Shown piece after piece: positions 16,394 through 30,625 of a DNA stretch of 56,837 nt (its first letter is position 1; every line of letters starts with the position of its first letter). The notes beneath the pieces are model-generated. The model saw only the letters and a list, made by a program, of their open reading frames with translations. It was not told the DNA's origin and did no database searches. The position numbers were made by a program, and so were the translations under genes. The DNA lies in the IMG/VR virus record IMGVR_UViG_3300042549_007930, positions 1-56,837 of that record. One strand, 5' to 3'. Source of the DNA: a virus. Its lineage: Duplodnaviria; Caudoviricetes.

Positions 16394-16469
16394 AATCCTC
16401 ACCCACTATATAAAAAATGTTTGGCTCCCATAGGGAGCCTTCATATATTTAGGTATTAAAATAAAAGTT

Positions 16470-16892
16470 ATGTTATACCAAGTATCAAATGAATGGAAAT
16501 GTGGGTTTATGGAAGATTTTATAGCCTACTCTAAAGGTGGTTATACATTAGATTCACCCCAAACTAAAATATCTATTGTAAAAGTATTCAAATATAAAAT
16601 TGAATCCAGACAAACACCTGGTATAGCTAATATAAAAGGTAAAAAATTTATAACACCAGGTTGGATACCATGTCACCCAAACACTGAGTTGAGTGATATT
16701 ACTTGGATACAAAAAGTATCAAAACAAGAACAAGTAAAGGAAATTGATACATGGAGATTCAAATCTTCAAGTAATGATGGTGAGTATGTTACTAAACGAA
16801 ATGGTTTTAAATATACTTGTAACTGTCCTGGATTTTGGAGAGCTAAAGATAGAGAATGTAAACATATTAAAGAAGTAAAGGGCAAACAATAA
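16470..16892 (+). CDS. SWIM zinc-finger protein
   Basis: C-terminal YTCNCPGF...CKHI. Confidence 0.75.
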   Translation: MLYQVSNEWKCGFMEDFIAYSKGGYTLDSPQTKISIVKVFKYKIESRQTPGIANIKGKKFITPGWIPCHPNTELSDITWIQKVSKQEQVKEIDTWRFKSSSNDGEYVTKRNGFKYTCNCPGFWRAKDRECKHIKEVKGKQ

Positions 16893-16897
16893 TATTT

Positions 16898-17128
16898 ATG
16901 AATATGATAACAACTGAGTACATACATAAATTTATTGATCATACTATTATAAAGTATGTTCCTGAAGGTATAGACCCTATATTACATGTTAATGCTAGAG
17001 TTGAAATTAGATCTGTTATAATGAAATTGTTAAAACAAAATCAATTACCTCTAAAATTATCTCTAATTAAATTGGTTATAATAGATTACAAAGATATACT
17101 TCACGCTAAATATTCTGTGTTAAATTAG
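16898..17128 (+). CDS. Hypothetical protein
   Basis: 76 aa ORF in gene row. Confidence 0.55.
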   Translation: MNMITTEYIHKFIDHTIIKYVPEGIDPILHVNARVEIRSVIMKLLKQNQLPLKLSLIKLVIIDYKDILHAKYSVLN

Positions 17129-17181
17129 GCTCCCCAAATTTGATTTCGTATATTAAGGTATAATTAAAATTAAATGTTATG
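17125..17181 (+). promoter_or_regulatory. Early-type promoter/leader (Bacteroidota sigma-A-like)
   Basis: TTAGG-N15-TTCGTATATT..GTTATG; other copies outside the array at ~19852, 20999, 22329; variants at ~3606, 16106, 16420, 23408, 34104, 56555. Confidence 0.75.
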
Positions 17182-17541
17182 ACTAAAGCACCAAATAGAG
17201 GAAGACCAACTGAAAATGATACTCCAATACTTCAGTACACTCAGAATTTTAAAGAACATACAGGTGAAACATTTACTTGGAATTGGGACAAAACTCGATT
17301 CCCAAATGGACCATTAAGTGTTGAAATTAAAGACCCACAATGGAGCACTTTTGACAGATTAGAAAATAAATTAGCAGCATTATTATCTCAATATGAAGTA
17401 AAAGGTAGTGAGCGTAAAAAACGAATTACCAAAACTGATAAATTAGAAATAGAAGCATTAGAAAGTGAAATAAATGAAATATGGTATGGTTTCTATCCTG
17501 AAGACAGACCTAAAGTAAGAAAAAACGCTAAACGTAAATAA
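17179..17541 (+). CDS. Hypothetical protein
   Basis: Directly follows a promoter/leader repeat. Confidence 0.7.
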   Translation: MTKAPNRGRPTENDTPILQYTQNFKEHTGETFTWNWDKTRFPNGPLSVEIKDPQWSTFDRLENKLAALLSQYEVKGSERKKRITKTDKLEIEALESEINEIWYGFYPEDRPKVRKNAKRK

Positions 17542-17862
17542 ATGAAGGCTAAACAACTTAAATTCAAAAATTTAGATGAACTAATGGAGTTCAATGAAGA
17601 TCAAGTTCGTGACATACACCTTCATACTTTTAAATTCTTAAGACAAGAATGGAATAAAAATAAAAAGTTTAGTGATGTAGATCTTTTCAATGTAGATTTT
17701 GAAGACGATGATGAATTTGAAAATATAATTTTAACTATTCATTCTAATGAATGGATTAAAGCTTTAGAATTAGGGTTAGAATATTTTGTAGAACAAGAAG
17801 AATACGAGACATGTGCTCACATTAGAAATTTATTAATTAAAATTAAAACTAAAAAGAAATGA
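17542..17862 (+). CDS. UvrB/UvrC-motif protein
   Basis: LEYFVEQEEYETCAHIRNLL. Confidence 0.6.
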   Translation: MKAKQLKFKNLDELMEFNEDQVRDIHLHTFKFLRQEWNKNKKFSDVDLFNVDFEDDDEFENIILTIHSNEWIKALELGLEYFVEQEEYETCAHIRNLLIKIKTKKK

Positions 17863-18065
17863 GTTATTTTCAAGCAACAGTAGAAATCCTTGACATGAAT
17901 GAAAAAGGTAAACAATCAAAAAACAGAGAGTTATATTTAGTAGATGCTGTTTCGGTAACAGACGCAGAAGTTAAAGTAACAAAAATGTTTGAAGACGAAG
18001 GTTCACAAGTGGATTTTCAAGTAAAAAGTGTTAGAGAAACAAAGATTTTACAAGTAATTGAATAA
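17859..18065 (+). CDS. DUF4494-like protein
   Basis: ELYLVDAVSVTDAE motif typical of Bacteroidota and their phages. Confidence 0.65.
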   Translation: MSYFQATVEILDMNEKGKQSKNRELYLVDAVSVTDAEVKVTKMFEDEGSQVDFQVKSVRETKILQVIE

Positions 18066-18115
18066 AAGCTTTTTGAAGCACACCCCATCCTTAGATACGT
18101 ATATACGCCACAAAC

Positions 18116-18325
18116 ATGAATTACCTTTATAAACATAATGATAAATTGTATTTGGTACTTAGAAACATGCCCGAACATAATTTTAAAAATAAGGATGGGT
18201 CTTTTAACATGGAGGTTTTAAAGGCATGGCGCGATCATTTAGGTGGCGACCATGTCTTAAAACAAAATGATAGATTTTTAATAGTAGAAACAATACAAGA
18301 AATAGAATATGAAACAAGTAATTAG
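18116..18325 (+). CDS. Hypothetical protein
   Basis: 69 aa ORF; TACGTATA upstream. Confidence 0.6.
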   Translation: MNYLYKHNDKLYLVLRNMPEHNFKNKDGSFNMEVLKAWRDHLGGDHVLKQNDRFLIVETIQEIEYETSN

Positions 18326-18560
18326 ATTTACAGCCACTTGGTGTGGTCCATGTAAAATGTATGCTCCAACATTTGAAAGAGTAGCCTCAGAAGTATCAGG
18401 AGTACAATTTAAAACAATTGATGTTGATTCAGGAGACCCATTAATAATGAAGTTAGGAATTAGAAACGTGCCAACAACAGTTATATTAGAAGGAGATAAA
18501 GTACTTCAAAAACAATCTGGGAATATGGGAGCGGAACAGTTGAAACAACTTATTGGATAA
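18309..18560 (+). CDS. Thioredoxin
   Basis: FTATWCGPCK, IDVD, VPT. Confidence 0.92.
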   Translation: MKQVIRFTATWCGPCKMYAPTFERVASEVSGVQFKTIDVDSGDPLIMKLGIRNVPTTVILEGDKVLQKQSGNMGAEQLKQLIG

Positions 18561-18562
18561 AA

Positions 18563-19588
18563 ATGATTAAACAACAATTTGAAAAATATAAAATAAGTCA
18601 GATGCAATTAGACCCCTTTGGGGTCTGCAATGCTAAATGTTGGTTTTGCCCTGTTAAGTATAAAGGTAATCCTAAAGAGGGTAAAGAGGTTATGTCTATA
18701 GAATTGTTGGAGAAAATCATTGTTAATTTACTTGAGGAACGAGGTAGAGAAGATGGTTTAGTAAGTAAGAGTTTTAATGGGTTTTATACCGCCCATTATA
18801 ATGAAATACTATTATACCCTCATTTTGAAGAGATGTTAAAGTTATGTAAAAAATATAGATTACATACTTTAGTATTAACAAATGGGGTTCCAATGACTCC
18901 TGAAAAAACTGATTTGATAAAACAATACCCTGAAGTAATAACTGGAGTATGTTTTAATACACCTGCATTTGAAGCAGATGTATGGAGTAAACGTAGTGGA
19001 ATTAATATTAAACAATTTGATAAATTAATTAATAATATTAAATACGCTACTGAAAACTTACCTGATTTAGTTAGGGGAGGAGCTTTATCAATTCAAGTAA
19101 ATGGAGTAAATGAAAATTCATTCAGTGATAGAGGGGGTTGGTTAGATAAAGGTTTAGAGTTTCCAACTGACATTGATTTAGATCAATATAAAGGAGAATT
19201 AATTACTCAAGCTAATTTAGCTAGAGAAATGTTTCCGGGAGTTCAAGTGTATGAAGTACCTTCATTAATTGATAGAGCAGGTTTATTAGATAATATTATT
19301 ACTAATAAAGAGGCTATTAAGAGAAATTTACAAGGGTACAATGAAAATAAAAAAGTAATTGGTTGTGGAAATGGTATAGAGGTAGGAGGAAGACCTATAG
19401 GGTGGATACATATTAACGCAGCGGGTGATGCTTTCTTATGTTGTAATGATTATGATTTTGATTTTAAATTTGGTAACTTCAAAACACAAGAATTGAGAGA
19501 TTTTTGGGGTACAGAAGAACATATCAATTTAGTACAAAAGTCTTATGATACAATATGTAGAAATTGTGCATCTGCAATATTTGAATAA
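18563..19588 (+). CDS. Radical SAM protein with SPASM/twitch domain
   Basis: CNAKCWFC, TNG, G..FLCCND, CRNC. Confidence 0.88.
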   Translation: MIKQQFEKYKISQMQLDPFGVCNAKCWFCPVKYKGNPKEGKEVMSIELLEKIIVNLLEERGREDGLVSKSFNGFYTAHYNEILLYPHFEEMLKLCKKYRLHTLVLTNGVPMTPEKTDLIKQYPEVITGVCFNTPAFEADVWSKRSGINIKQFDKLINNIKYATENLPDLVRGGALSIQVNGVNENSFSDRGGWLDKGLEFPTDIDLDQYKGELITQANLAREMFPGVQVYEVPSLIDRAGLLDNIITNKEAIKRNLQGYNENKKVIGCGNGIEVGGRPIGWIHINAAGDAFLCCNDYDFDFKFGNFKTQELRDFWGTEEHINLVQKSYDTICRNCASAIFE

Positions 19589-19590
19589 TT

Positions 19591-19845
19591 ATGAATAAAA
19601 TACAAGAAATTTTTACAGCATGGGCAATATCATTTGACCCAAACCAAGCTCAATCTGATTTAGCAAGTGAGAGAATTCAAATTTGTAATGAATGTGAATT
19701 TAAAGCTACAATACCTATTATACATTGTAGTTTATGTGGTTGTGCCTTAAGAGCTAAGATTTTTACACCTCTTAAAGGAACAGAAGAAACACCTACTTGC
19801 CCTAAACATAAATGGAAAGAAGTAGAGGAGAAATACCTACCGTAG
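19591..19845 (+). CDS. Small Cys-rich metal-binding protein
   Basis: RIQICNEC...CSLCGC...K...CP.HKW. Confidence 0.7.
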   Translation: MNKIQEIFTAWAISFDPNQAQSDLASERIQICNECEFKATIPIIHCSLCGCALRAKIFTPLKGTEETPTCPKHKWKEVEEKYLP

Positions 19846-19900
19846 GAAATGTTTGGAAAACCAAAACGCATTTCGTATATTAAAGCATAAATTTAAAAAT

Positions 19901-20125
19901 ATGAAAACAGTTATTAAAGTTTTAGCAATATTAATATTAGGGTTTGGGTTAGTACAATTAACTGACTTAGCACTCTATCTAATGAATAGACCTGATAGTT
20001 ACCTATTCAATATTGGGTTATTAATATTTGGAATATTGTTTGTAGCATTTGGCTATTTAGGATTGTATCTACTGAAGGTGTTAAAACCAGAGGATGAGGA
20101 AGAAAAAGAAGAAAATGAATTATAA
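19901..20125 (+). CDS. Two-TM membrane protein
   Basis: Start moved from 19853 to the ATG at 19901 behind the promoter repeat; two hydrophobic segments and an acidic tail. Confidence 0.7.
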   Translation: MKTVIKVLAILILGFGLVQLTDLALYLMNRPDSYLFNIGLLIFGILFVAFGYLGLYLLKVLKPEDEEEKEENEL

Positions 20126-20146
20126 ATCAAATTTAAACAACAAGTT

Positions 20147-20974
20147 ATGAACAGAATTTTAGTAGCATTAGGTTTAGTCCTAACAATTTTTGCAATCACA
20201 ATGTCATGTGAAAACATTGACTCAGGTAACATTGGTATCAAAGTAAACAAGTTTGGTACGGGAAGAGGGGTAAGTGGAGTGACAGAATGTACAGGTACAG
20301 TCTTTTACAACCCAATCACAACAAACATTTTTGAATTCCCAATTAACATTAGGCATAAGGAATATACAGAAGAAGGATCGTTTGTAGTAAATAGTAAGGA
20401 TGGATCAGAGTTTCATGTGTCACCGATTGTAAACTATAGAATTAATCCTGATAAAGCCACTCAAATCTTTGCCAAATATAGAAAAGACTTAGATGGTATT
20501 GAGAATGGGTTCTTGAAAACAGCTGTAACAGAAGCATTCAGAATTGTCACAAATAGTTATACTGCTGATCAATTAATTTCAAGTAGAGAATCTTTTGATA
20601 ATAAAGTAAAAGCTACATTAAGGAAACAACTTGAACCTGAAGGATTTGTATTAGATCAGTTTACAACTAATTTAGAATATCCAACATCGTTTAAGAACGC
20701 TATTAACGCTAAAAATAATGCAGTACAAAAAGCATTAATGGCTGAAAATAGGGTTAAACAAGCAGAAGCTGAAGCTAAAATTAAAGTAGCAACTGCTGAA
20801 GGAGACGCACAAGCGACACTTACAAGAGCAAAAGCTGAAGCTGAAGCAAATGCTTTGAAACAAAGAACATTAACACCTCTATTAATTCAACAACAATGGA
20901 TTGAGAAATGGAGAGGAAATGTACCAACAACAACATTAGGTTCAGGTACAAATGTGATGTATGGTTTAAAGTAA
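20147..20974 (+). CDS. SPFH/Band 7/prohibitin-family membrane protein
   Basis: N-terminal hydrophobic segment with Cys; AINAKNNA; AEAEA coiled coil; IEKW.G.VP. Confidence 0.88.
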   Translation: MNRILVALGLVLTIFAITMSCENIDSGNIGIKVNKFGTGRGVSGVTECTGTVFYNPITTNIFEFPINIRHKEYTEEGSFVVNSKDGSEFHVSPIVNYRINPDKATQIFAKYRKDLDGIENGFLKTAVTEAFRIVTNSYTADQLISSRESFDNKVKATLRKQLEPEGFVLDQFTTNLEYPTSFKNAINAKNNAVQKALMAENRVKQAEAEAKIKVATAEGDAQATLTRAKAEAEANALKQRTLTPLLIQQQWIEKWRGNVPTTTLGSGTNVMYGLK

Positions 20975-21052
20975 AATTATATAAAATATGTTTAGAGGCT
21001 TGGATTTCCAAGCCTCTTTTCGTATATTAAAATATAATTAAAATGATAAATT

Positions 21053-22168
21053 ATGATGTTACCAATTTTATTTAAACGTTCAAATAGTAAAGAACATATC
21101 AACCAATGGCAAATTGAGGTTGAAGGAAGTAAATTTAGAACCACAACTGGGTTTGTAGGTATGAAGATGTTTACAGGTGATTGGACTGAATGTACTCCTA
21201 AAAATGTAGGTAAAAAGAATTCAACAACAGCTGAAGAACAAGCTTTATTTGAAGCTAATGCCCTTCATACTAAACGTAAAGATTTAGGTTATTGGGAAGA
21301 TATAAATGATTGTGATAAGAAAGTATTCTTTCAACCTATGTTAGCCCAAGACTATGATAAGAGAAAAGACAAAATTAAATTCCCAATCTTATCTCAACCT
21401 AAATTAGATGGTATCAGATGTATTATTAAATCAGATGGTATGTGGACAAGAAATGGTAAAGAGATTATTTCTGCGCCTCACATATATGAATATTTAAAAC
21501 ATATCTTTGATAATCAACCCGACTTAGTATTGGACGGTGAATTATATACTTCAGATAGAGATGTTGATTTTAATACTATTATTTCATGTGTTAGAAAAAC
21601 AAAACCAACACAAGCTGATTTAGAAATGTCAGCTAAATATATTGAGTTTTGGGCTTATGATTTATATGATGGTGAAGATTTAACATATGAAGATAGAAGA
21701 AATCTATTAAAAGAGTTAGAAAGTAGATATAATGTTTATTATCCTTTATACAGAGTAGTTACAACTTATCAATTGCCTGATGAAAAACATATTATGGAAC
21801 AACTTCAACATTACATTGAACAAGGTTTTGAAGGCCAAATATTAAGAGATCCAAACACTCCTTATGAAAATAAAAGATCAAATGGTTTATTAAAACATAA
21901 AACATTTTTTGATGAGGAGTTTGATATCATTGGTTACGCTGAGGGTGTAGGTAAATTTTCAGGTAAATTAGCAACTTTAAAAGTAGATGTTAATGGGGTT
22001 CAAGTTGATTGTACTATAAATGGTACAATGGGTTATTTAGAAGAATTATTTGAAATTAAAGATAATTTAATAGGTAAAAAAGCAACTGTTAAATATTTTG
22101 AAAAAACAACTGATAATTCATTACGTTTTCCAAAAGTGATTCAAATAGATAGAAACAGTTATGAGTAG
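21053..22168 (+). CDS. ATP-dependent DNA ligase
   Basis: PMLA, QPKLDGIRC, LDGELY, EGQILR, YENKRS..LLKHK, SLRFP. Confidence 0.93.
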   Translation: MMLPILFKRSNSKEHINQWQIEVEGSKFRTTTGFVGMKMFTGDWTECTPKNVGKKNSTTAEEQALFEANALHTKRKDLGYWEDINDCDKKVFFQPMLAQDYDKRKDKIKFPILSQPKLDGIRCIIKSDGMWTRNGKEIISAPHIYEYLKHIFDNQPDLVLDGELYTSDRDVDFNTIISCVRKTKPTQADLEMSAKYIEFWAYDLYDGEDLTYEDRRNLLKELESRYNVYYPLYRVVTTYQLPDEKHIMEQLQHYIEQGFEGQILRDPNTPYENKRSNGLLKHKTFFDEEFDIIGYAEGVGKFSGKLATLKVDVNGVQVDCTINGTMGYLEELFEIKDNLIGKKATVKYFEKTTDNSLRFPKVIQIDRNSYE

Positions 22169-22367
22169 AAAACCTTATAAAAGATTTTATTGTGAAGATA
22201 CATCTCCTGTATTAAAATCAATAAGAAACGCTAAGAATCATGGTAAAATTAGGACAATAAATGATTTAACTTACGAGCAAATAGGAGATGATATGCTGTA
22301 TTGCTTTAAAACCTCTTGCGTTGTTAAACTTGGCTCTCTAGAATTGGATTCGTATATTAAGACATAA
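22161..22367 (+). CDS. Hypothetical protein
   Basis: 68 aa ORF overlapping the ligase stop. Confidence 0.5.
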   Translation: MSRKPYKRFYCEDTSPVLKSIRNAKNHGKIRTINDLTYEQIGDDMLYCFKTSCVVKLGSLELDSYIKT

Positions 22368-22383
22368 TTAAAATATAAAGATT

Positions 22384-22578
22384 ATGAGTAAAGAATTAAG
22401 TGAATTAAGTATAGATGAAATTAATAATAAATTAATTGAAAACTATAAAACTCAAGTTGAGATTTTAAAATCAATGGTGGCTGATAGAGATAAATTAATT
22501 TCTCTATATGAAAAACAATTATTAATTCAGGATAAACATATTGATGAAATTAATAAAATTATAAAATCAAATTTATAA
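22384..22578 (+). CDS. Coiled-coil hypothetical protein
   Basis: Follows a promoter/leader repeat. Confidence 0.65.
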   Translation: MSKELSELSIDEINNKLIENYKTQVEILKSMVADRDKLISLYEKQLLIQDKHIDEINKIIKSNL

Positions 22579-22582
22579 TAAG

Positions 22583-22861
22583 GTGGAGAAAACAGGTAAT
22601 CTTGAAAAACTAACTTATGACTTTAATACAGCCGCTAATCTAGAAATTTGGATGCCAAATCTAGATGGGTGGTATAGAGTCACAAGTAGAGAATTCAGAA
22701 GTTTTAATGGTAAGAGAAGAATTAATGGGGAAGAATATAAAGGTGTTGTATTCCATTATGGAACTAATAAAAGAGCTAACAAGTCATTAGTAGAGGCTAA
22801 TAAAATAGCGAGCCATAATTACAAAAGTGTTAGGAGACCCGGAGATCAATTAGTATATTAA
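22583..22861 (+). CDS. Hypothetical phage protein
   Basis: GTG start; WYRVTSREFRSFNGKRRI. Confidence 0.65.
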   Translation: MEKTGNLEKLTYDFNTAANLEIWMPNLDGWYRVTSREFRSFNGKRRINGEEYKGVVFHYGTNKRANKSLVEANKIASHNYKSVRRPGDQLVY

Positions 22862-22884
22862 ATTAAATAAAAAAATAAATATAA

Positions 22885-23088
22885 ATGGAGAAATTAGGAG
22901 TATTTTTTGCCGCTATTGGTATGATAATAGTAATAGCTGTGTTAATGGCTTGGCCTACACAATGGCTTTGGAATAATGCTTTAATAGGGGCTATTGATGG
23001 TTTAAATCCAATTGGGTTTTGGCAGGCGTTAGGTATTAATGTATTATGTGGTATTTTATTTAGAAACTCAACAACAAATTCAAAATAA
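22885..23088 (+). CDS. Small membrane protein
   Basis: Hydrophobic; WLWN and IGFWQALG motifs. Confidence 0.75.
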   Translation: MEKLGVFFAAIGMIIVIAVLMAWPTQWLWNNALIGAIDGLNPIGFWQALGINVLCGILFRNSTTNSK

Positions 23089-23264
23089 TGAGTTATTATC
23101 AAGTTATATTAAAATCAGGAAAGACACACCCGTCTCTTTATAAAACTATTCCTAATGCTATTAAAAATGTAGGGGTAGAGAATATAAAGGAGATTAAAGA
23201 AATTAGATCGGAATTAGTAGATGCTAAATACGAAGAACCAACAGGAACATTAAACATAGAATAA
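23088..23264 (+). CDS. Hypothetical protein (58 aa, not in ORF track)
   Basis: TAATG overlap with previous stop; MSYYQVILKSGK... Confidence 0.6.
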   Translation: MSYYQVILKSGKTHPSLYKTIPNAIKNVGVENIKEIKEIRSELVDAKYEEPTGTLNIE

Positions 23265-23265
23265 T

Positions 23266-23406
23266 ATGAGCAAAAACAGCGCTAAAACAAACTACGAACA
23301 ATTGATTCAGTGGTTACCAACATTAGGACAACCTAAAGTGAAAAAAGAACAACAGTCAACTAAATTTAGTAAAGCTGACCATTACAAGAGTAAAGGGGTT
23401 AAATAA
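23266..23406 (+). CDS. Hypothetical basic protein (46 aa, not in ORF track)
   Basis: MSKNSAKTNYEQLIQWL... Confidence 0.55.
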   Translation: MSKNSAKTNYEQLIQWLPTLGQPKVKKEQQSTKFSKADHYKSKGVK

Positions 23407-23456
23407 GTTTTGCTTTCCAAATATCTTTTCATATATTTAGGTATAAATTAAATGAA

Positions 23457-23630
23457 ATGAAAACTGTACAATTTACCTTACAAGAAAGATGGGCTGCTTC
23501 AAAGCATATGGTTCAAAAATCTAAAAAAACTTACACTAGAAAAGATAAACATAAAAACAAGGACCTTAAAGGTCCTTCTTTTATTGTAATGTTTGGCTCT
23601 CCGGGGTATACTTCGTATATTAAAATATAA
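23457..23630 (+). CDS. ArfA-like small basic protein with internal terminator (57 aa, not in ORF track)
   Basis: Has its own promoter at ~23408; KSKKTYTRKDKHK motif; hairpin and U-tract lie before the stop codon. Confidence 0.6.
   Translation: MKTVQFTLQERWAASKHMVQKSKKTYTRKDKHKNKDLKGPSFIVMFGSPGYTSYIKI
23559..23585 (+). terminator. Intrinsic terminator inside ORF 23457-23630
   Basis: AAGGACCT-TAA-AGGTCCTT followed by CTTTTATT. Confidence 0.65.
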
Positions 23631-23647
23631 TTAAAAAGATAAAGGTT

Positions 23648-23809
23648 ATGAAAGAAGCGCATTTACAATTAGCTAAACAGTTAATAGAATTAAAACATTT
23701 AAGAGAGGATGTTAAAGTAGCTTATATTGATTTTGAAGATGGATCAGGAAAAAGTTTTATATTTAGTACTACAGTTAATCCTAATCATAAAATTCATATT
23801 AGATTATAA
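23648..23809 (+). CDS. Hypothetical early protein (53 aa, not in ORF track)
   Basis: ATG at the end of a repeat; IDFEDGSGKSF. Confidence 0.7.
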   Translation: MKEAHLQLAKQLIELKHLREDVKVAYIDFEDGSGKSFIFSTTVNPNHKIHIRL

Positions 23810-23878
23810 AAGTAAAGTTTGGCTCCCCTAAATTAATTTCGTATATTAAATCATATTAATAATTAAAAATAAAATGTT

Positions 23879-24616
23879 ATGACAAATCAAGAAACACAAT
23901 TAGAATTAGATTTCGGAATGTTAACAGTTGCTCAACAAGAGCGTGTTGATTCATTTATTCAAAACCAAAAAAATATTATTCAAAATAATATTAAAAATAG
24001 TAATGCTATTGAAACATTATTAAATGAAGGTGGTTTTATTAAAGGTGTTGATTATGAAAACACTATTAAAACTAAAGTTGTAACAGAAGAAAAAGAATTT
24101 TATTGTGATGGTAATTTTAAAACTGATATTACTTATGAAACAGTAGAAGGTAGTATTTCAATTTTATATAAAAAATATGATCCTAGAGAAAATAAAATTG
24201 TAACTCAAAGAGGTTATATTTCAAAAAATTCTGATAAACTTGAATGTAGTTGTATTACTTCACAATATAGAGCTTACAAACCGAAATCATTATATGAAAA
24301 ACTTGTAGAAAGTAATAGTAAAGCTCAAAATGAGTTTGATAGTGATAATCGTGAAAGATTAATTGTAAAATATACTGTTAACAAATACAAAAATTTATTT
24401 CCAAAAGCTGAAGTTACAGTAGGTAGAGATTACTATAAAAATTATAGAAGTAATTATATTGAATTTCCAATTGTAATGGTTAAATTTGAAAGTGGTTCAT
24501 ACATTAGCTTCAGAATGGGTTATATAATTGATGAAGAAGTGGTTTATAAAAAACATGATGCAGTTGCTTCTCAATTAAGTGCTATTGAATTATTAAATAT
24601 TTTTAATCAACAATAA
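23879..24616 (+). CDS. Hypothetical early protein
   Basis: 245 aa ORF behind a repeat. Confidence 0.75.
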   Translation: MTNQETQLELDFGMLTVAQQERVDSFIQNQKNIIQNNIKNSNAIETLLNEGGFIKGVDYENTIKTKVVTEEKEFYCDGNFKTDITYETVEGSISILYKKYDPRENKIVTQRGYISKNSDKLECSCITSQYRAYKPKSLYEKLVESNSKAQNEFDSDNRERLIVKYTVNKYKNLFPKAEVTVGRDYYKNYRSNYIEFPIVMVKFESGSYISFRMGYIIDEEVVYKKHDAVASQLSAIELLNIFNQQ

Positions 24617-24677
24617 AGTTTGGCTCCCCTAAATTGATTTCGTATATTAAAGTATAATAATAAAAAATATAAATGTT

Positions 24678-25478
24678 ATGACACAGTTAAAAAAATTATC
24701 AAGAGAGGAGTTAAAATCATTAGCACCTCAAGTATTTAACCATCAAGTTAGTTCTAAGTTAACTGACAAGTATGTTCATATTCCAACTGATACTATAGTT
24801 GAAGATATGGAAAAGTTAGGTTGGTTTCCCTACCAAGTGAAAACAGTTAAGGCTAGAAAATCATCAGGTGCAATGGGTAAACACTTAATTCAGTTTTTTA
24901 ATCCTGAAATTGTTATTAATAATGAAGCAGGTGAAGCTGATTTGTTTCCAAATTTATTATTAATTAATTCACATGACGGTTCTACTTCAGTAAGATTTGA
25001 AATGGGAGTATTCAGATTAGTATGTGAAAATGGTTTAGTAATTAAATCAAAAGATTTTGGAGGTTTCAAAATGAGACACATGGGTTATAATTTTGAAGAT
25101 TTAAGAACCCATATTAGCTCTTTAGTTAAAACATTACCTGATGTAGTTGATAATTTGAATAAATTCTCTCAGGTAATTATGACACCTGAACAACAAAATG
25201 AATTTGCAAATAAGGCAATTGAAGCTAGGTTTAATGAAGAAAAATCATTACCTCAAAGTGAAATTGACTATTTGTTAACACCTGAACGTAAAGAAGATGA
25301 AGGTGACAATTTATGGGTTGTACTAAATCGTGTACAAGAAAAATTAACTCAAGGAGGTTTTGGTTATTTAAACGCTAAGGGTAAATTAAGAAAAACAAGA
25401 GCTGTTAAAAACTTCACCATGGACACTGAAATGAATATGAAGTTGTGGGAAATTGCTGAAGAGTATTTAGTTAACTAA
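24678..25478 (+). CDS. DUF932/DUF945-family protein
   Basis: LLINSHDGS, GVFRLVCENGL, LWVVLNRVQE, N..LW. Confidence 0.85.
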   Translation: MTQLKKLSREELKSLAPQVFNHQVSSKLTDKYVHIPTDTIVEDMEKLGWFPYQVKTVKARKSSGAMGKHLIQFFNPEIVINNEAGEADLFPNLLLINSHDGSTSVRFEMGVFRLVCENGLVIKSKDFGGFKMRHMGYNFEDLRTHISSLVKTLPDVVDNLNKFSQVIMTPEQQNEFANKAIEARFNEEKSLPQSEIDYLLTPERKEDEGDNLWVVLNRVQEKLTQGGFGYLNAKGKLRKTRAVKNFTMDTEMNMKLWEIAEEYLVN

Positions 25479-25539
25479 AATTAAGGGGAGCTTGGCTCCC
25501 CTAATATAAAATCGTATATTAAATTAAATAAATAAAATT

Positions 25540-25728
25540 ATGACATTAACACCAATTCAAAAATTAAGAGAAGATATTAGAAGTTATGACTCTTCTATAT
25601 ACTTGTATGTTTTAGCTTTATTAGTTGAAGCAGAAGGTCAGGAAAAAGCATTCTTGGAAAAAGTTTATAACGAACCTAAAACAACTGAGTTTGAAGACTA
25701 TTATAAACAGTTTGGAAAACCTAAATAG
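25540..25728 (+). CDS. Hypothetical early protein
   Basis: Behind a repeat. Confidence 0.65.
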   Translation: MTLTPIQKLREDIRSYDSSIYLYVLALLVEAEGQEKAFLEKVYNEPKTTEFEDYYKQFGKPK

Positions 25729-25771
25729 GATTCGTATATTAAATCATATTAATAATTAAAAATAGAAAGTT

Positions 25772-25960
25772 ATGACATTACAAGTAATTAATACCAAAAA
25801 GGAAAAGTACAATCAAATTAGAACAACTAAAGAAAATTTATTTTCTGATTTAAAATTTCAAGGTTGGAATTTAAAAGATTGTAAAATAAGTGAATTAAAA
25901 GAAGGTTTAGTTCATACATTGTACAGAAGTGCAGATGGTAAAAACACTAGTACAAGATAA
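25772..25960 (+). CDS. Hypothetical early protein
   Basis: Behind a repeat. Confidence 0.65.
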   Translation: MTLQVINTKKEKYNQIRTTKENLFSDLKFQGWNLKDCKISELKEGLVHTLYRSADGKNTSTR

Positions 25961-25968
25961 AAACAAAA

Positions 25969-26098
25969 AGTCAGGTGGCGGAATTGGTAGACGCAAATGC
26001 CACTCGGAGAGTTATATAAAAGTATAAATCTCCTTGCTAGTGGTAGGGTTTCCTAAAGAGTAAAACATCCCATACAGGTTCAAATCCTGTCTTGACTT
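25969..26098 (+). ncRNA. tRNA-like RNA (Leu-type D arm, canonical T arm, anticodon arm replaced by a long hairpin)
   Basis: Acceptor AGTCAGG/CTTGACT; D arm GCG-GAATTGGTAGA-CGC; T arm ACAGG-TTCAAAT-CCTGT; ~79 nt between the D and T arms. Confidence 0.8.
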
Positions 26099-26106
26099 CT
26101 AATAAA

Positions 26107-26137
26107 TGCCTCATAACCATTTATTATTTTTAATTAT
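26107..26137 (+). ncRNA. Putative antisense element, copy 1 (complementary to cassette leader and AUG)
   Basis: TGCCTCATAACCATTTATTATTTTTAATTAT; reverse complement ATAATTAAAAATAATAAATGGTTATG. Confidence 0.55.
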
Positions 26138-26145
26138 CGAAGAAG

Positions 26146-26171
26146 AGCCTAACAGAAATGTTAGGCTTTTT
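26146..26171 (+). terminator. Intrinsic terminator
   Basis: AGCCTAACA-GAAA-TGTTAGGCT-TTTT. Confidence 0.85.
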
Positions 26172-26215
26172 GGGTTTAACTTCGTATATTAGGGTATAAT
26201 TAAAAATATAAAGTT

Positions 26216-26491
26216 ATGACAAAAGAGAAAGTAGGTTACAGTAGAGAAGCAATGATTAAGTTTCTAAAAATTGAAGGTGTTTATGTAATTGGAACAACTG
26301 AAGAATTTTCAGGTCAAAAAGGTGGAATTTGGGTTGGTGGTGAAGAAATGGATGGGTTATTTGAATACTATAATAATAGTTCTAAATTTACATTTGGAGT
26401 AGAGAAAAAATTAAACGAAGCTGTTAATAAAAGAGGGTGGTGGTTTAGTTGGAATGATCCGGGTACAATGATGGTGTGGCCAATTAATTAA
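26216..26491 (+). CDS. Hypothetical early protein
   Basis: Behind a repeat; GW..SWNDPGT. Confidence 0.75.
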   Translation: MTKEKVGYSREAMIKFLKIEGVYVIGTTEEFSGQKGGIWVGGEEMDGLFEYYNNSSKFTFGVEKKLNEAVNKRGWWFSWNDPGTMMVWPIN

Positions 26492-26549
26492 AATTTGGCT
26501 CCCCTAAATTGAATTCGTATATTAAAGTATAATTAAAAATAAAAATGTT

Positions 26550-26747
26550 ATGATAAATCCAAAAGTACAAGAAGTTATTGACACTTTAAGAGAAATTGAA
26601 GTGGATGGTGAAACAATGCAATACATTCTAGATAAAGTAGGAATGTCAGATCAAATATTAAGACAATTAATATTTTTAGCCCCTAAAGATCAATTAGAAG
26701 ATCTTATGGATGAAGTAGTAGCTTACCAAAAAATAAGAGGTTATTAA
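26550..26747 (+). CDS. Hypothetical early protein
   Basis: Behind a repeat. Confidence 0.7.
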   Translation: MINPKVQEVIDTLREIEVDGETMQYILDKVGMSDQILRQLIFLAPKDQLEDLMDEVVAYQKIRGY

Positions 26748-26809
26748 CCAAGGATTGGCTATTTAAAATATATTTCGTATATTAAAGTATAATTAAAAAG
26801 ATAAAAGTT

Positions 26810-27565
26810 ATGAAAAACATTGAAACATTAAATCAGGAAATTGTAAAGTTAGAAGAACAAAAAACTAATTTCTTAAATTTAGAACAAGATTTAAAAGATG
26901 CAAGATCTAATATCTATGTTAGAGAACAACAAGCATTAAGTGATTCTTTATTAATATTTTTTGAGGGTTTTAATCCTGATGCGTATATTGAAGTATCAAG
27001 AGACTCTATTTACTTTAAAACTGATCACCCTGATTACACTTACCGAAAAGAATTATTTAGTATTTATTTAAGAGAAAGATACGCAATTGAGGGTAAAAAA
27101 TATAGTGGGGCTGATTTATCTTATTACACCACTTCTACTAAAGGAGATGATGTTTGGGAGTTAAAAAGATTAAGAATGTTAGGAGATGTAGCTGACATTT
27201 TAATTAAAAGTCAACATGCAATAGTTGATGTAGCCAATAATACTGTAGACAAATTCAAAGAAGAATTTAATGAAGTTTATGGTAAAATGGGTGTTGTTGG
27301 AAATTCTATTAGAGACTTAAATAACCAAATTAGAGAAATCCAAAAACAAATTAAAAGAATTGAATTATTTGGAGAAGGTATTCAATTTGAAAAATCAAGA
27401 TGTATTACTTTGAAACATAATTATGAACCAAGAGTTGTATCTTTAAAATTAATTGAAGTTTCTAAATCAGGTAAAAAAGCAACTGCTGTATTTGAGTGGG
27501 AGAAAGGAAGAGAATCAAGAGAAGAAGGTGTAAATGTTGAAAAAATCATTTACCAAGTTATATAA
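26810..27565 (+). CDS. Hypothetical coiled-coil early protein
   Basis: 251 aa ORF behind a repeat. Confidence 0.75.
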   Translation: MKNIETLNQEIVKLEEQKTNFLNLEQDLKDARSNIYVREQQALSDSLLIFFEGFNPDAYIEVSRDSIYFKTDHPDYTYRKELFSIYLRERYAIEGKKYSGADLSYYTTSTKGDDVWELKRLRMLGDVADILIKSQHAIVDVANNTVDKFKEEFNEVYGKMGVVGNSIRDLNNQIREIQKQIKRIELFGEGIQFEKSRCITLKHNYEPRVVSLKLIEVSKSGKKATAVFEWEKGRESREEGVNVEKIIYQVI

Positions 27566-27566
27566 G

Positions 27567-27597
27567 TGCCTCATAACCACTTATTATTTTTAATTAT
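27567..27597 (+). ncRNA. Putative antisense element, copy 2
   Basis: 30/31 identical to 26107-26137; followed by hairpin GCCCCTT-ATT-AAGGGGC-TTT (27609-27628). Confidence 0.55.
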
Positions 27598-27681
27598 ACT
27601 TTGTTAAGGCCCCTTATTAAGGGGCTTTGGCTTTCTAAATTATAATTCGTATATTAGGGTATAATTAAAAAATAAAATGTT

Positions 27682-27918
27682 ATGACAAGTTTTAAATTGC
27701 AAGATGAAGCAAATGGGTCTTTTAAAATATTTGATTTAAGACAAGCTATAGGTAGAGAATTTAGTGATAATCACTCTCCAACTTTAAGGAGTAAATTATT
27801 AGAAGTAAGTGATTGTGGGAATGTTTGTACTGTAATTAGTATAGAAGCCTATAATAAACAAGGGGGCAAAGTAAGTAAACAACCTTCTTATTTAACTTGG
27901 AATGCCTTATTTTATTAA
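27682..27918 (+). CDS. Hypothetical early protein
   Basis: Behind a repeat. Confidence 0.7.
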   Translation: MTSFKLQDEANGSFKIFDLRQAIGREFSDNHSPTLRSKLLEVSDCGNVCTVISIEAYNKQGGKVSKQPSYLTWNALFY

Positions 27919-27975
27919 AATTTGGCTTTTATAAGTCAGCTTCGTATATTAGGGTATAATTAAAAATTAAATGTT

Positions 27976-28101
27976 ATGAAAAAAATAGTATTGTTAGGAG
28001 TTATTTATTGGGAAGTAGAAATTGGAGGGGTAACTCATATGTCATTCAACCCTCAAGAATTAGTTGTTAAAATGGCCTCAATGGGTTTAAGTTTAAATTA
28101 A
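27976..28101 (+). CDS. Hypothetical early protein (41 aa, not in ORF track)
   Basis: ATG at the end of a repeat. Confidence 0.6.
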   Translation: MKKIVLLGVIYWEVEIGGVTHMSFNPQELVVKMASMGLSLN

Positions 28102-28113
28102 AAATATAAAGTT

Positions 28114-28332
28114 ATGAGTTTACATTCAGTTTATATATGTGAAGATTTTGAAGTTGGTAATGGTATTTTAACTATTTGGGATGCCAAAGAAGTAGCTAAG
28201 GTAAAAGATATAGATGGTTTTAATAGGATTAGTGAAATTCTAATTTCTGAAAATGGAGTATTACCTAATGGAATTATATGTCCTAATTTATTTCATAATT
28301 CTGAATTTTTTGATATTATACTTTTTGAATAA
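28114..28332 (+). CDS. Hypothetical early protein
   Basis: Preceded by the leader half of the repeat only. Confidence 0.65.
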   Translation: MSLHSVYICEDFEVGNGILTIWDAKEVAKVKDIDGFNRISEILISENGVLPNGIICPNLFHNSEFFDIILFE

Positions 28333-28389
28333 TATTTGGCTTTTATAAGTTGACTTCGTATATTAGGGTATAATTAAAAATATAAAGTT

Positions 28390-28692
28390 ATGATAAAGAA
28401 AGAAAGATTAAGATTAAATACAGTTCATGTATTTGAAATGGTAAAAGCAAATTTTGAAGTAAGTACTGATTTTTGTGATGATGAAGGTCATGGTTATTTT
28501 ACTTTTGGGGTAATGAAAGATGGAGTAGAATACTTATTTGATTTAAGTAGAAGAGATTTTAGTGTTATTACCCATAAAATAAGAGGTGAAAAAGGTTATG
28601 AAATTGGAGCTGATTTAGAAGCTGAATTAGACAGATTTATTTTCTTAGAATTAGAAAATTCAAATGCCTTTATTGATAATATGGTTAAATAA
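28390..28692 (+). CDS. Hypothetical early protein
   Basis: Behind a repeat. Confidence 0.7.
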   Translation: MIKKERLRLNTVHVFEMVKANFEVSTDFCDDEGHGYFTFGVMKDGVEYLFDLSRRDFSVITHKIRGEKGYEIGADLEAELDRFIFLELENSNAFIDNMVK

Positions 28693-28753
28693 TATAGTTT
28701 GGCTCCTTAAAGGAGCCTTCGTATATTAAGGTATAATTAAAAATAAAAATGTT

Positions 28754-28981
28754 ATGAAAGTTACAGATGAAAAAGCAAGAGTAAAAGCTCTAAAAAATAA
28801 AATTAAAGATTTAACTGGGGTTAGAAGATTATATAAACCTTCTAAAGTTACTATTAAAGGAGAACCATTTCTTAGGTTTTATAATTCAGTAGATGGAATA
28901 GTTTGGCTTGATAGATTTTATGTAAATGAATATGATAAAGTTTTCACAGTAAAAGATGGAGAATTAGTTTTATTAGGGTAA
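28754..28981 (+). CDS. Hypothetical early protein
   Basis: Behind a repeat. Confidence 0.7.
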   Translation: MKVTDEKARVKALKNKIKDLTGVRRLYKPSKVTIKGEPFLRFYNSVDGIVWLDRFYVNEYDKVFTVKDGELVLLG

Positions 28982-29038
28982 TTTGGCTTTATAATAATAA
29001 ATTCGTATATTAAAGTATAATTAAAAATATAAGATGCT

Positions 29039-29398
29039 ATGGCAACAAGATCAAGAATCGGAATCGAAAATGAAAATGGTACAATTAGTTCAATTTATTG
29101 TCATTGGGATGGTTACCCAGATGGTGTAGGGGCAACTTTAGAAGAACATTACTCCAATAGACAAAAATTAAGAATGTTAATTAATTTAGGTGACATTAGT
29201 ATTTTAGGAGAACATGTAGCAACAATGGATGAACACTCTTTTGATAATAGAAAAGAAGGTGTTACAGTAGCTTATCATAGAGATAGAGGTGAAGAAAAAC
29301 GAGAAGCAAGAGTAGACAAATCATTAGAAACATTCTCAAACTATGAACAATATGGTTATGTTTACACTAAGGATGAAAAATGGGTAATGTTTGAATAA
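29039..29398 (+). CDS. Conserved phage protein (MATRS..IYCHWDGYP type)
   Basis: MATRSRIG, SIYCHWDGYP, AYHRDRGE. Confidence 0.75.
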   Translation: MATRSRIGIENENGTISSIYCHWDGYPDGVGATLEEHYSNRQKLRMLINLGDISILGEHVATMDEHSFDNRKEGVTVAYHRDRGEEKREARVDKSLETFSNYEQYGYVYTKDEKWVMFE

Positions 29399-29404
29399 TA
29401 AAAA

Positions 29405-29418
29405 GGGGCTTCGGCCCC
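29405..29418 (+). terminator. cUUCGg tetraloop hairpin
   Basis: GGGGC-TTCG-GCCCC just after the stop of 29039-29398. Confidence 0.6.
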
Positions 29419-29479
29419 ATATTATTTGGCTCCTATATATATATTTCGTATATTTAATTATAATTTAAAAATAAATGTT

Positions 29480-29761
29480 ATGAGAAAAGGTACAGTTACA
29501 GGTGAAATTAAAAGTATTTTAAATGAATTAAATGTAAAGTATAATGGATGTTATTCAGATACTTATAGGTTTGTAGAAGGAGGCAGATGGAATAATAGAA
29601 GGGTAGGGGTAAAATTTATAGGGGTATTCTTGACACCCGAACAAACAGAATTAGTAAAAATTAAAATGGAAAATAAAGGTTTTAAATTTGATTTTATTAG
29701 GGAAAATAGAGGTAAAAGTTATTATAATACTAATGGTACTAGATTTTGTTTTAAATATTAA
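29480..29761 (+). CDS. Hypothetical early protein
   Basis: Start moved from the TTG at 29426 to the ATG at the end of the repeat. Confidence 0.7.
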   Translation: MRKGTVTGEIKSILNELNVKYNGCYSDTYRFVEGGRWNNRRVGVKFIGVFLTPEQTELVKIKMENKGFKFDFIRENRGKSYYNTNGTRFCFKY

Positions 29762-29821
29762 TTAGGTTTGGCCCCTTAAAGGGGCCTTCGTATATTATAG
29801 TATAATTAAAAATATAGAGTT

Positions 29822-29995
29822 ATGACACAAGAAGAAATGAATACCGAAAATGCTTTAGTATTAGAAAAGTATGAAGTGATTAAAAAATTAGATAATTACT
29901 TACACAACGCAGCTTTTGATAGAATTACCCTAACAAGTGATATGTTAAAGGAGTTAAAAGGTATGATTGATGAAATGTTATTATCCGATTTTTAA
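29822..29995 (+). CDS. Hypothetical early protein (57 aa, not in ORF track)
   Basis: ATG at the end of a repeat. Confidence 0.65.
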   Translation: MTQEEMNTENALVLEKYEVIKKLDNYLHNAAFDRITLTSDMLKELKGMIDEMLLSDF

Positions 29996-30055
29996 TATTT
30001 GGCCTTTAAAAATATTATTCGTATATTAAAGTATAATAATTAAAAATAAAATGTT

Positions 30056-30277
30056 ATGAAAGTAAAAGATTTAATTAAGTTTTTGAGTGAACAAGATCAA
30101 AATTTAGAAGTAGTTATTAAATATATTGATCACACAGATTGGAATTATGAATTGCCTTTAAGAGCTCAAGATGTTTATGTGGACGAAGTATTTGAAGTGG
30201 ATGAAGCTAATTTGGAAGAAGGTCAATCTATTGAATCAGGAGATGAGTGTTTAGTAATTGAATTAAGTTTTGAATAA
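30056..30277 (+). CDS. Hypothetical acidic early protein
   Basis: MKVKDLI..L....QNLEV; behind a repeat. Confidence 0.72.
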   Translation: MKVKDLIKFLSEQDQNLEVVIKYIDHTDWNYELPLRAQDVYVDEVFEVDEANLEEGQSIESGDECLVIELSFE

Positions 30278-30283
30278 CATATT

Positions 30284-30388
30284 ATGAAAGAGAAATTATA
30301 TATTATTGAGGGATTTGAAATATGGGCGAATAATGAAGCCGGGGCTATTGAAAAATATAGATTATGGTGTTTACCATGTTGGAATTAA
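30284..30388 (+). CDS. Hypothetical peptide (34 aa)
   Basis: MKEKLYIIEGFEIWA...; fills the gap up to the next repeat. Confidence 0.5.
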   Translation: MKEKLYIIEGFEIWANNEAGAIEKYRLWCLPCWN

Positions 30389-30448
30389 TATTTGGCTTTT
30401 AAGTTTATATTTCGTATATTATAGTATAATAATTAAAAATAATATGTT

Positions 30449-30625
30449 ATGGAAAGTAGATTTGGTATTGAATTAGAGGTATTAGAGAGAGCATTACAAA
30501 ATATGATCAGTGAAGGTTATATGGGTAAAGATGATACAATTGAAGATTTAGAAGATTTAGCTTATACATGTTGTGAAGGGTTAGCTTGGTACGCCAAATC
30601 TAAAATATATGATTGGGCAAATTAA
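30449..30625 (+). CDS. Hypothetical early protein (58 aa, not in ORF track)
   Basis: ATG at the end of a repeat. Confidence 0.65.
   Translation: MESRFGIELEVLERALQNMISEGYMGKDDTIEDLEDLAYTCCEGLAWYAKSKIYDWAN

Follow-up and report, generated by a model that had tools for sequence, protein, structure and literature searches.

Among the small release-factor-dependent factors that rescue stalled ribosomes, ArfA and BrfA are both described as being expressed from transcripts truncated before the stop codon, and the two proteins share a KH motif (PMC8012679). The mature ArfA of Escherichia coli is given as 52-55 amino acids (aa), and its segment at residues 15-31 is described as binding release factor 2 (RF2), with the hydrophobic residue at position 25 extending the RF2 sheet (PMC6299226); its basic segment, with the KH motif common to BrfA, runs into the mRNA entry channel (PMC8012679; PMC6299226). 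Factors of this kind are reported to be hard to find by sequence, and more of them are predicted to exist (PMC8012679). In the survey figures given in PMC11633108, arfA was recorded in 0 of 1,956 genomes of the FCB group, with ssrA in 1,913 and arfB in 1,426. The present analysis concerns a candidate of this kind, a small gene on the + strand of IMG/VR virus record IMGVR_UViG_3300042549_007930 (Duplodnaviria; Caudoviricetes), analysed as a single stretch of 56,837 nucleotides (nt), hereafter the window. The gene is an open reading frame (ORF) at 23457-23630 in which a hairpin and T-run of the intrinsic-terminator type precede the stop codon. The comparative evidence for the predicted non-stop mRNA design is strong, and from the likeness to ArfA and BrfA we infer a role in ribosome rescue.

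The ORF extends from an ATG at 23457 to the first in-frame stop codon, TAA at 23628-23630, and encodes 57 aa, its translation including ...QKSKKTYTRKDKHKNKDLKGPSFIVMFGSPGYTSYIKI. Residues 1-35 (MKTVQFTLQERWAASKHMVQKSKKTYTRKDKHKNK; 23457-23561) form a coding core that is conserved across the family and under purifying selection, and within this core a basic ArfA-like module, K21-H32 (KSKKTYTRKDKH; 23517-23552), contains the RK.KH ('KH') motif and aligns with ArfA residues ~28-46. The module is followed in frame by the hairpin AAGGACCTTAAAGGTCCTT (23559-23577; ORF nt 103-121), with 8 bp, 4 G-C pairs, a loop of 3 and a stability of -9.9 kcal/mol, which encodes K35-D-L-K-G-P-S41. Directly 3' of it lies the T-run CTTTTATT of an intrinsic terminator (23578-23585), hairpin and T-run together spanning ORF nt 103-129 in frame. 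The stop codon follows 51 nt past the hairpin, just after the -10 box of the next gene. This next gene (23648-23809, + strand; 53 aa) is served by a promoter of the form TTGGCT-N17-TATATT at 23593-23621, which lies inside the tail of the small ORF. Because of this overlap, the last codons of the ORF, S-Y-I-K-I-stop, are the -10 region of the next gene, and past codon 35 the ORF consists of recognisable non-coding signals, namely the stem, the T-run and the next promoter from -35 to -10. The small gene has its own promoter, TTTGCT-N17-TATATT (23409-23437, + strand), 20 nt upstream of the ATG, which is a one-mismatch copy of the same repeated phage motif; relatives L001, L004 and L006 have the same promoter motif at an equal upstream distance. 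The motif TTGGCT-N17-TATATT occurs in 29 copies on the + strand of the window against 1.31 expected, a number reached by 0 of 100 shuffles, and its copies lie mainly at 16107-34417, plus one at 56555, usually with TTCG before TATATT in the form ..TTCGTATATT. A preliminary description of this DNA, made from its letters alone, had reported the 57-aa ORF, a promoter of its own and an in-frame hairpin with a T-run before the stop, all of which are seen in the sequence. It had also taken the gene to be phage-encoded, which agrees with the viral record and with the presence of the gene in a cultured Flavobacterium phage; the overlap of the next promoter with the ORF tail had not been mentioned.

Transcription would be expected to start at ~23444-23446, leaving a leader of ~12 nt without a Shine-Dalgarno sequence. 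Intrinsic terminators usually release the RNA 7-9 nt after the stem, and an RNA 3' end would here be expected at ~23584-23586, corresponding to a stop-less product of 42-43 aa. A consensus scan of positions 20000-28000 gave 7 terminator-like sites against 2.4 expected, the hairpin at 23559-23577 among them, and this hairpin is retained in the RNAfold centroid structure. When the whole 201-nt region was folded, its stability was no better than that of shuffled sequences (z -0.30), and the local hairpin alone stands out. In a window-wide control, 10 terminator-like hairpins were counted for the + strand. Seven fall between genes, two weak ones sit within genes of 308 and 626 aa, and the tenth, at 23559-23577, is the sole one read through by a short ORF. 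Since seven of the 10 are intergenic, the phage does not routinely put terminators inside genes. Matching metatranscriptome contigs from four runs comprise pieces of 109-847 nt that are 90-99% alike, with ends at 23541 and 23488, and none spans 23559-23592; being contigs, these data cannot show RNA ends, and nothing follows from them for termination. The 24 metatranscriptome runs listed contribute small shares, 0.06-0.13 of sampled words.

The arrangement recurs in relatives of the gene. Scans of IMG/VR yielded 19 loci and then 211 relatives, and the best 80 of these 211, together with locus L018 and the window, were used for the layout analysis, which comprised 65 distinct loci after removal of duplicates. 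A hairpin lies wholly inside the ORF in 37 of them, the stop falls within the hairpin in one, the stop precedes a hairpin in 18, and no hairpin was found in nine. The preliminary expectation that the internal hairpin would be conserved in homologues is thus borne out for part of the family, and above all for the window's own sequence type, Q-[ED]-[RQ]-W, in which 34 of 36 loci have the in-ORF hairpin as against 3 of 29 others. Even the two exceptions of this type, L085 and L088, fold an in-ORF stem, that of L088 being imperfect and followed by an A-run. Within the window's clade there are 27 distinct hairpin sequences (-7.0 to -15.4 kcal/mol), which start 1-14 nt after the KH codon and whose stem arms covary (e.g., AAGGACC/GGTCCTT, AAGAGTC/GACTCTT, AGGGGCC/GGTCCCT and AAAGAGGATCC/GGATCCTTTTT). 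Stems of at least 7 bp are present in 35 of the 37 loci, and in 28 of these 35 the 9 nt that follow include at least five T; across these loci, hairpins of this kind have a background density of 0.70 per kb, the family's own hairpins included. Covariation was judged from stems drawn for each sequence, not from a structure-fitted alignment; RNAalifold found no consensus pair when given 32 hairpin regions aligned with MAFFT, because loops of 3-8 nt leave the stems misaligned. A layout kept in 37 of 65 loci, with stems that covary, is no accident of the window.

The stop codon is found 7-206 nt past the stem, at a distance of at least 16 nt in 22 of 34 loci, and in those loci it would lie beyond the usual RNA release point of an intrinsic terminator. 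The ORF tails have no common sequence unless they overlap a downstream DNA signal, as with the phage promoter in the window, L044 and L045, or with a TTAAAGC...CTTTAAG repeat in another lineage. At L003, L007, L008 and L023, palindrome-like motifs (TTAAAGCATCACTTTAAG and TTAAAGCTTTGCTTTAAG) right after the hairpin encode recurring 'SKAFL/VKASL' tails, and these motifs are probably a promoter or operator of the phage lineage in which they recur, which is not that of the window.

Sister clades show what the gene looks like with its stop codon placed earlier. In these, the protein ends 2-10 residues after KHK, and a terminator follows 8-19 nt after the stop in L083, L094-L096, L098 and L018 or overlaps the stop in L121. 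Because the sister clades stop first, the two arrangements can be regarded as one short transcription unit in two forms, which differ in whether a stop codon intervenes after the KH motif and ahead of the stem. The same comparison indicates that the region 3' of the hairpin is dispensable for the protein, and, as the sister clades place a normal stop at the spot occupied by the hairpin, that the functional peptide comprises ~36-43 aa. A rough neutrality test was made on loci that had been picked for an in-ORF hairpin. On a FastTree topology, third codon positions have undergone at least 7.25 changes per site across the clade, and a stop can be reached from the spacer codons by 1.75 one-step paths; neutrality would predict no fewer than 4.2 stop gains there, and 0 were seen among 36 loci (P ~0.015, or ~0.08 if L088 is counted as a gain). 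This deficit of stops in the spacer is suggestive only.

The small ORF is a real gene under purifying selection. Nucleotide diversity by codon position is 0.232/0.157/0.555 among 63 distinct sequences, third positions varying 2.4-3.5 times more than first and second, and between the window and L049 there are 16 synonymous and two non-synonymous codon changes among 32 codons. A word-indexed search returned 20 relatives of 40-82 aa, and a profile search of 1.84 billion representatives matched 205 clusters at E<=1e-3, 59 of them at E<=1e-10. Codon-position diversity, synonymous excess and the breadth of the family together lead to rejection of a non-coding reading. The family proteins, of 33-60 aa, occur mostly on phage contigs, and their conserved residues 1-35 follow the pattern [M]K.I..T.QE[RI]W.A....V.K[SN]KK.Y.RK.KHK, in which the N-terminal 20 residues are conserved as much as the C-terminal tail. 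AlphaFold 2 modelled the monomer with a predicted local distance difference test score (pLDDT) of 66, one helix at residues 8-18 and the remainder unstructured, and such a mostly disordered model would suit a peptide that acquires its fold on binding a target. A predicted complex of peptide residues 1-43 with the RF2 of a Lacinutrix metagenome-assembled genome (MAG) scored 0.00, which gives no evidence either way.

Existing annotation says little about the family. The Rfam search gave no family match, NCBIfam no relevant family, and PHROGs matches below threshold only (phrog_20887, E 0.041; phrog_2701, E 0.094); database annotation of the small ORF goes no further than 'hypothetical protein'. 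The same label is carried by the closest cultured relative, gp147 (KNV73_gp147, YP_010114536.1) of Flavobacterium phage vB_FspM_immuto_2-6A, which is 83% identical to the window protein over residues 1-35. Its locus (L052) has the hairpin-inside-ORF layout of the window, the annotated coding sequence of 49 aa taking in the hairpin, and it differs from the window gene in its own hairpin sequence and tail. The nearest Pfam family to the small proteins is DUF7230 (PF23876; 42 positions, no function assigned), matched collinearly, residue n to profile position n, by 15 of 21 family members at E<=10. The best match among these 21 has E 4.6e-4, L029 reaches 8.4e-5, and the window protein scores 12 bits (E 0.24); the gathering cut-off of 27 bits was reached by none, the best relatives scoring 19-23.1 bits. 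On these scores the family counts as a relative of DUF7230 that falls outside the curated family. A protein-atlas cluster with a DUF7230 domain is 73% viral, and full-text literature searches found no mention of DUF7230.

Similarity to ArfA was sought in both directions. A profile of 21 family sequences (A1) searched against 177,635 distinct PDB sequences, of which six are ArfA, gave five matches at E<=10, four of them to ArfA (E 0.19-0.33). A broader profile (A6), of 119 sequences taken from the 150 representatives listed of the 205 clusters, with long or fused ones left out, gave 11 matches, ArfA being the top four and six of the 11 (best E 0.015). In hhalign comparisons with an alignment of 20 enterobacterial ArfA sequences, picked among 120 matches listed of 730, P moved from 0.0012 to 4.2e-4 and the probability from 20% to 34% as the family profile was broadened. 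The aligned stretch stays constant, with R-Q-R-V-E-K-N-K-K-(GKG)-S-Y-x-R-K-G-K-H in ArfA set against R/K-x-x-V-x-K-[NS]-K-K-x-Y-x-R-K-x-K-H in the family, and no alignment reaches N-terminal of the R..V position. The motif that the preliminary description had ascribed to ArfA, KGKGSY.RK.KH, is present in the ArfA alignment as KGKGS-[YF]-x-R-K-x-K-H. In the reverse search, an ArfA hidden Markov model (HMM) placed the small ORF at the top of the 813 segments from the window's six reading frames (E 0.14; next, E 1.3). In a language-model protein atlas, an ArfA-named cluster appeared at rank 29 with a score of 0.85, which is treated as a lead only. These alignments point to a real local similarity to the channel-binding segment of ArfA, by common descent or convergence, the stretch being too short to prove either; the small-protein family as a whole is not a member of the ArfA family. 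The preliminary label 'ArfA-like' accordingly survives, on borderline statistics, for the basic C-terminal motif and fails for the Pfam ArfA family and the RF2-binding segment, so that the preliminary interpretation finds support in part. As a separate observation, the second ArfA-HMM match (25911-26024, E 1.3) falls on a 32-aa ORF at 25929-26027 containing the stretch KNKKSGGGIGRRKCH; it overlaps the end of the ORF at 25772-25960, its own end is promoter-encoded, and it was rejected as an ArfA-like candidate, most likely being noise.

On the basis of these data, the small gene is proposed to be a phage-encoded functional analogue of ArfA and BrfA that is gated by trans-translation, a reading that we favour while still holding it as tentative, at slightly under an even chance. 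Its transcript would start at ~23445 and end at ~23585, a monocistronic RNA of ~140 nt with no stop codon, the terminator lying 1-14 nt past the KH codon and before any stop in the window's clade. That the transcripts of this clade end ahead of the stop and serve as non-stop mRNA is probable, and their translation would give the peptide of 42-43 aa. The Lys/Arg-rich C-terminal module (R/K..V.K[NS]KK.Y.RK.KH) would enter the vacant mRNA channel of ribosomes that have stalled on reaching the 3' end of a broken mRNA, in the manner of the ArfA and BrfA tails; judged by the alignments, such binding is a fair possibility without quite being probable. The N-terminal strand/helix part (..I.VT.QE[RI]W.A..) would contact a release factor and so bring about release of the peptide chain, a step argued by analogy and the more doubtful of the two. 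As long as the transfer-messenger RNA (tmRNA)-SmpB system works, the peptide would be tagged and degraded, by analogy with what is described for arfA and brfA (PMC8012679). When trans-translation is saturated, for example by mRNA cleavage during infection or defence, untagged peptide would build up and return ribosomes to translation of phage mRNA. In the sister clades, production of this peptide would be constitutive, like that of ArfT. The layout associated with ArfA and BrfA, a stem-loop or terminator in the ORF before the stop, is seen at the sequence level in the window; termination at the hairpin, tagging, ribosome binding and release-factor recruitment are steps that we infer beyond it.

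Several findings weigh against this proposal. The ArfA match covers ~22-25 lysine-rich columns with borderline E values (0.015-0.33). The Pfam ArfA model (PF03889), for which the E. coli sequence scored 89.7 bits as a positive control, matched 0 of 21 family members and nothing in the six frames of the window at E<=10, and neither the GKG insert of ArfA nor its RF2-binding segment (residues 15-31, F25) has an alignable counterpart in the family. The profile of related proteins from Bacteroidales has its best PDB match in eS25 (E 0.0024 for a tandem chain; 0.08-0.8 for others), not in ArfA. A few loci (L049, L061 and L068) have in-ORF hairpins without a T-run. A normal stop is the rule in the wider family, and so the protein does not need non-stop expression; as the sister clades and most relatives stop normally, the non-stop design is a clade-specific regulatory layer and not a family property. 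Homologues that stop before the hairpin had been named in the preliminary description as an adverse outcome, and they are what the sister clades and most of the wider family show, the design remaining in the window's clade. A weak point on the same side is that the lack of stops inside the G+C-rich stems is not special by itself: frame +1 also has 0 stops there, with 14 of 35 in frame +2. Since frame +1 is likewise free of stops in the stems, what carries the non-stop case is the lack of a stop ahead of the hairpin and not its lack within the stem. The borderline ArfA statistics, the failure of the Pfam model and the normal stops also speak for an ordinary small basic early protein, such as a nucleic-acid binder or host-takeover factor, over whose gene 3' end a terminator has slid, the ArfA likeness being compositional and the non-stop effect incidental or avoided by read-through. 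The gene's position among small genes that each have a promoter, with several terminators fused to promoters, suits such a protein, as does the DUF932 neighbour at several loci, which is uninformative on translation. Nevertheless, ArfA tops two profile searches of the PDB sequences ahead of many Lys-rich ribosomal and histone chains, with a score that rises as the profile is broadened; a stop is absent in 34 of 36 clade members despite spacer lysine codons one mutation away from one; and, with seven of the 10 terminator-like hairpins of the + strand intergenic and not read through by any ORF, compaction alone does not push terminators into genes. An ordinary protein of this kind is, on balance, rather unlikely.

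The channel-binding resemblance applies equally to a ribosome binder that blocks, whose tail would fill the empty channel and exclude tmRNA-SmpB or ArfB, shielding phage products from tagging or shutting off the host, with no release factor involved; the missing counterpart of the RF2-binding segment fits this as well. Such a blocker would, however, lock up ribosomes needed by the phage, the conservation of its N-terminal 20 residues at the level of the tail suggests a second partner, and self-limiting non-stop expression suits a rescue factor more than an inhibitor of the very system that degrades it, so that we consider blocking improbable. An ORF that runs through a terminator is also the geometry of translation-dependent antitermination, in which RNA polymerase, with a ribosome coupled to it, would be kept from terminating and read-through downstream would be tuned, the peptide being secondary; this cis-acting leader is a distinctly slimmer prospect, as a separate promoter at 23593-23621 serves the downstream gene and the peptide is under strong purifying selection and is kept in clades with a stop before the hairpin or with no hairpin. 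That the region is not a gene at all, and represents a small RNA or the terminator of an upstream operon with a chance ORF, could be argued from the shortness of the ORF, the missing Shine-Dalgarno sequence and the bare 'hypothetical protein' annotation. This last view is already contradicted by the codon-position diversity, the synonymous excess relative to L049, the 205 clusters that match the family profile, the lack of an Rfam match and the gene's own promoter, and its probability is close to nil.

The window has an estimated completeness of 27% and contains three gene regions. Positions 1-14300 encode sugar-nucleotide/polysaccharide-type functions (a phosphoheptose isomerase-like protein, an aminotransferase, two epimerases, a methyltransferase and a FabG-like reductase), which can be viewed as auxiliary metabolic genes on a phage fragment; the region at 16-34 kb is the small-gene block with a promoter for each gene; and baseplate genes lie beyond 40 kb. 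In this window, tRNA and tmRNA genes were searched for and none was found. Almost all small genes of the 16107-34417 block have their own copy of the promoter motif, and at the copies at 16421, 28699 and 29768 the 17-nt spacer is itself a G+C-rich hairpin, fusing terminator and promoter. The motif is unlike the -33/-7 promoter that we take to be usual in Bacteroidota, so that TTGGCT-N17-TATATT poses the question of the polymerase or sigma factor that recognises it. The ORF at 15448-16104 matches HNH endonuclease PHROGs and that at 56126-56572 matches homing-endonuclease PHROGs, its best match being named 'NAD synthetase' (phrog_447); these endonuclease-like ORFs sit at the edges of the small-gene block and the structural block. 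Two genes downstream of the small gene there is a DUF932 gene (24678-25478; Pfam E 2.2e-25; phrog_12094), and at the sister-clade loci L012, L013 and L016 a DUF932 gene is directly downstream, so that the linkage recurs.

Cultured relatives of the window phage came to light through protein comparisons only: a 'distant' blastn search of window positions 22800-24700 against cultured phages returned no DNA match. The baseplate wedge protein (40495-42375) shares 48% identity with its counterpart in Flavobacterium phage vB_FspM_immuto, and a protein from a phage whose recorded host is Microcystis (PP395634.1) is about as close, at 48.5%. The latter likeness could reflect a related phage lineage in very different hosts, or infection of a bacterium co-cultured with the recorded host. 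By tblastn, the small protein matched cultured phages in four records, exclusively immuto isolates, at the 83% identity over residues 1-35 given above. Among species-representative genomes, 13 loci match the small-gene family, 10 of them in MAGs labelled Bacteroidota (one each Flavobacteriia, Lacinutrix, Flavobacteriales, Crocinitomicaceae and Bacteroidota, two Bacteroidaceae and three Prevotellaceae). Several sister-clade loci have TTTG...TAnnTTTG upstream, which we take to be a Bacteroidota promoter form. Based on the MAG labels, this promoter form and the immuto relatives, the host range of the family is most likely Bacteroidota, and the window lineage probably infects Flavobacteriia. The gene is proposed to belong to a large Flavobacterium-type myovirus and to be expressed early in infection.

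Full-text searches of literature other than subscription journals and supplementary files, judged by the titles and opening abstract lines of the papers listed, found no description of the small-protein family or of a viral ArfA-like factor. As far as these searches show, the gene, if correctly read, would be the first viral release-factor-dependent rescue factor and would add a further independently evolved non-stop mRNA switch to those of arfA and brfA. What is new is the ArfA/BrfA logic in a much shorter, virus-encoded family of a different host phylum, and comparative genomics alone has singled out this large family, in which an ArfA-like channel motif is joined to the non-stop hallmark of ArfA and BrfA. 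Phages would then manage stalled ribosomes during infection by sensing swamped trans-translation, the peptide serving both as counter-defence and in ribosome resource management; rescue-factor biology would extend to Bacteroidota, and clades with and without the non-stop switch would constitute a natural experiment. A cultured phage-host pair with the gene, Flavobacterium sp. LMO8 and phage vB_FspM_immuto, makes the proposal directly testable. Should the reading be wrong, the conserved terminator-inside-ORF layout would still want explanation.

A related C-terminal module occurs in proteins of Bacteroidales. Five contigs from Bacteroidaceae and Prevotellaceae MAGs (L031-L035; 48-53% G+C), together with P0020, encode proteins of 59-61 aa with an SKKTYTRK.KHK module, normal stops and a different N-terminal half (..ELLGPGFHS.., with LGPGFHS invariant), which match the phage family with an hhalign probability of 97.5%. 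Because the module alone is shared, it combines with more than one kind of N-terminal part. Its occurrence is sporadic: 7 of 121 Bacteroidales genomes were matched, the motif being present in the query's own genome only. As a bridge between the phage family and ArfA these proteins were dropped, given an hhalign P of 0.0075, the profile match to eS25 and this sporadic distribution. If the reading holds, they would represent an unrecognised rescue factor in a phylum without ArfA. The widest form of the proposal, in which phages of Bacteroidota carry their own release-factor-dependent rescue factor, the non-stop switch acts as a sensor and in counter-defence, and the Bacteroidales module marks such an unrecognised factor, is conceivable but doubtful.

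Compared with described systems, the small gene resembles brfA of the Bacillus subtilis group in its rho-independent terminator before the stop, its KH motif and the proposed control by trans-translation, as these are described for BrfA (PMC8012679). BrfA is regarded as a separate origin of this control logic, and the phage family would be another; BrfA differs in its active form of ~62 aa and in being encoded by a chromosomal Bacillus gene. Although the PDB includes a BrfA entry, 6SZS (PMC8012679), no BrfA chain was matched in profile searches A1, A4 and A6 at E<=10. ArfT of Francisella is similar in its length of ~40 aa and its basic C-terminal tail (PMC6299226), and it resembles the sister clades in that its description gives it no ArfA-type control by termination or RNase III (PMC6299226). 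Its motif, compared here by description only, is given as KKGGSTNKK, not RK.KH. With ArfA, the family shares small size, a basic segment in which R..V.KNKK...Y.RK.KH aligns with R/K..V.K[NS]KK.Y.RK.KH, a dispensable read-through tail, and a stem-loop shortly past the KH codon and before the stop, from which in ArfA an active product of non-stop mRNA is described (PMC8012679). The geometry agrees with that of E. coli arfA, in which nt 135 closes the KH codon and the stem begins ~15 nt later, and the ArfA product extends 7-10 residues past KH, as against 10-11 predicted for the window peptide. The E. coli stem is long and of the RNase III type, whereas the family stems are of 7-11 bp and of the terminator type. 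The part preceding the motif comprises 16-20 residues in the family and is unrelated to the RF2-binding segment of ArfA, and many phage-family members, unlike ArfA, have a normal stop. Finally, ArfA (PF03889) is known from Gamma- and some Betaproteobacteria, whereas the family described here comes from phages of Bacteroidota.

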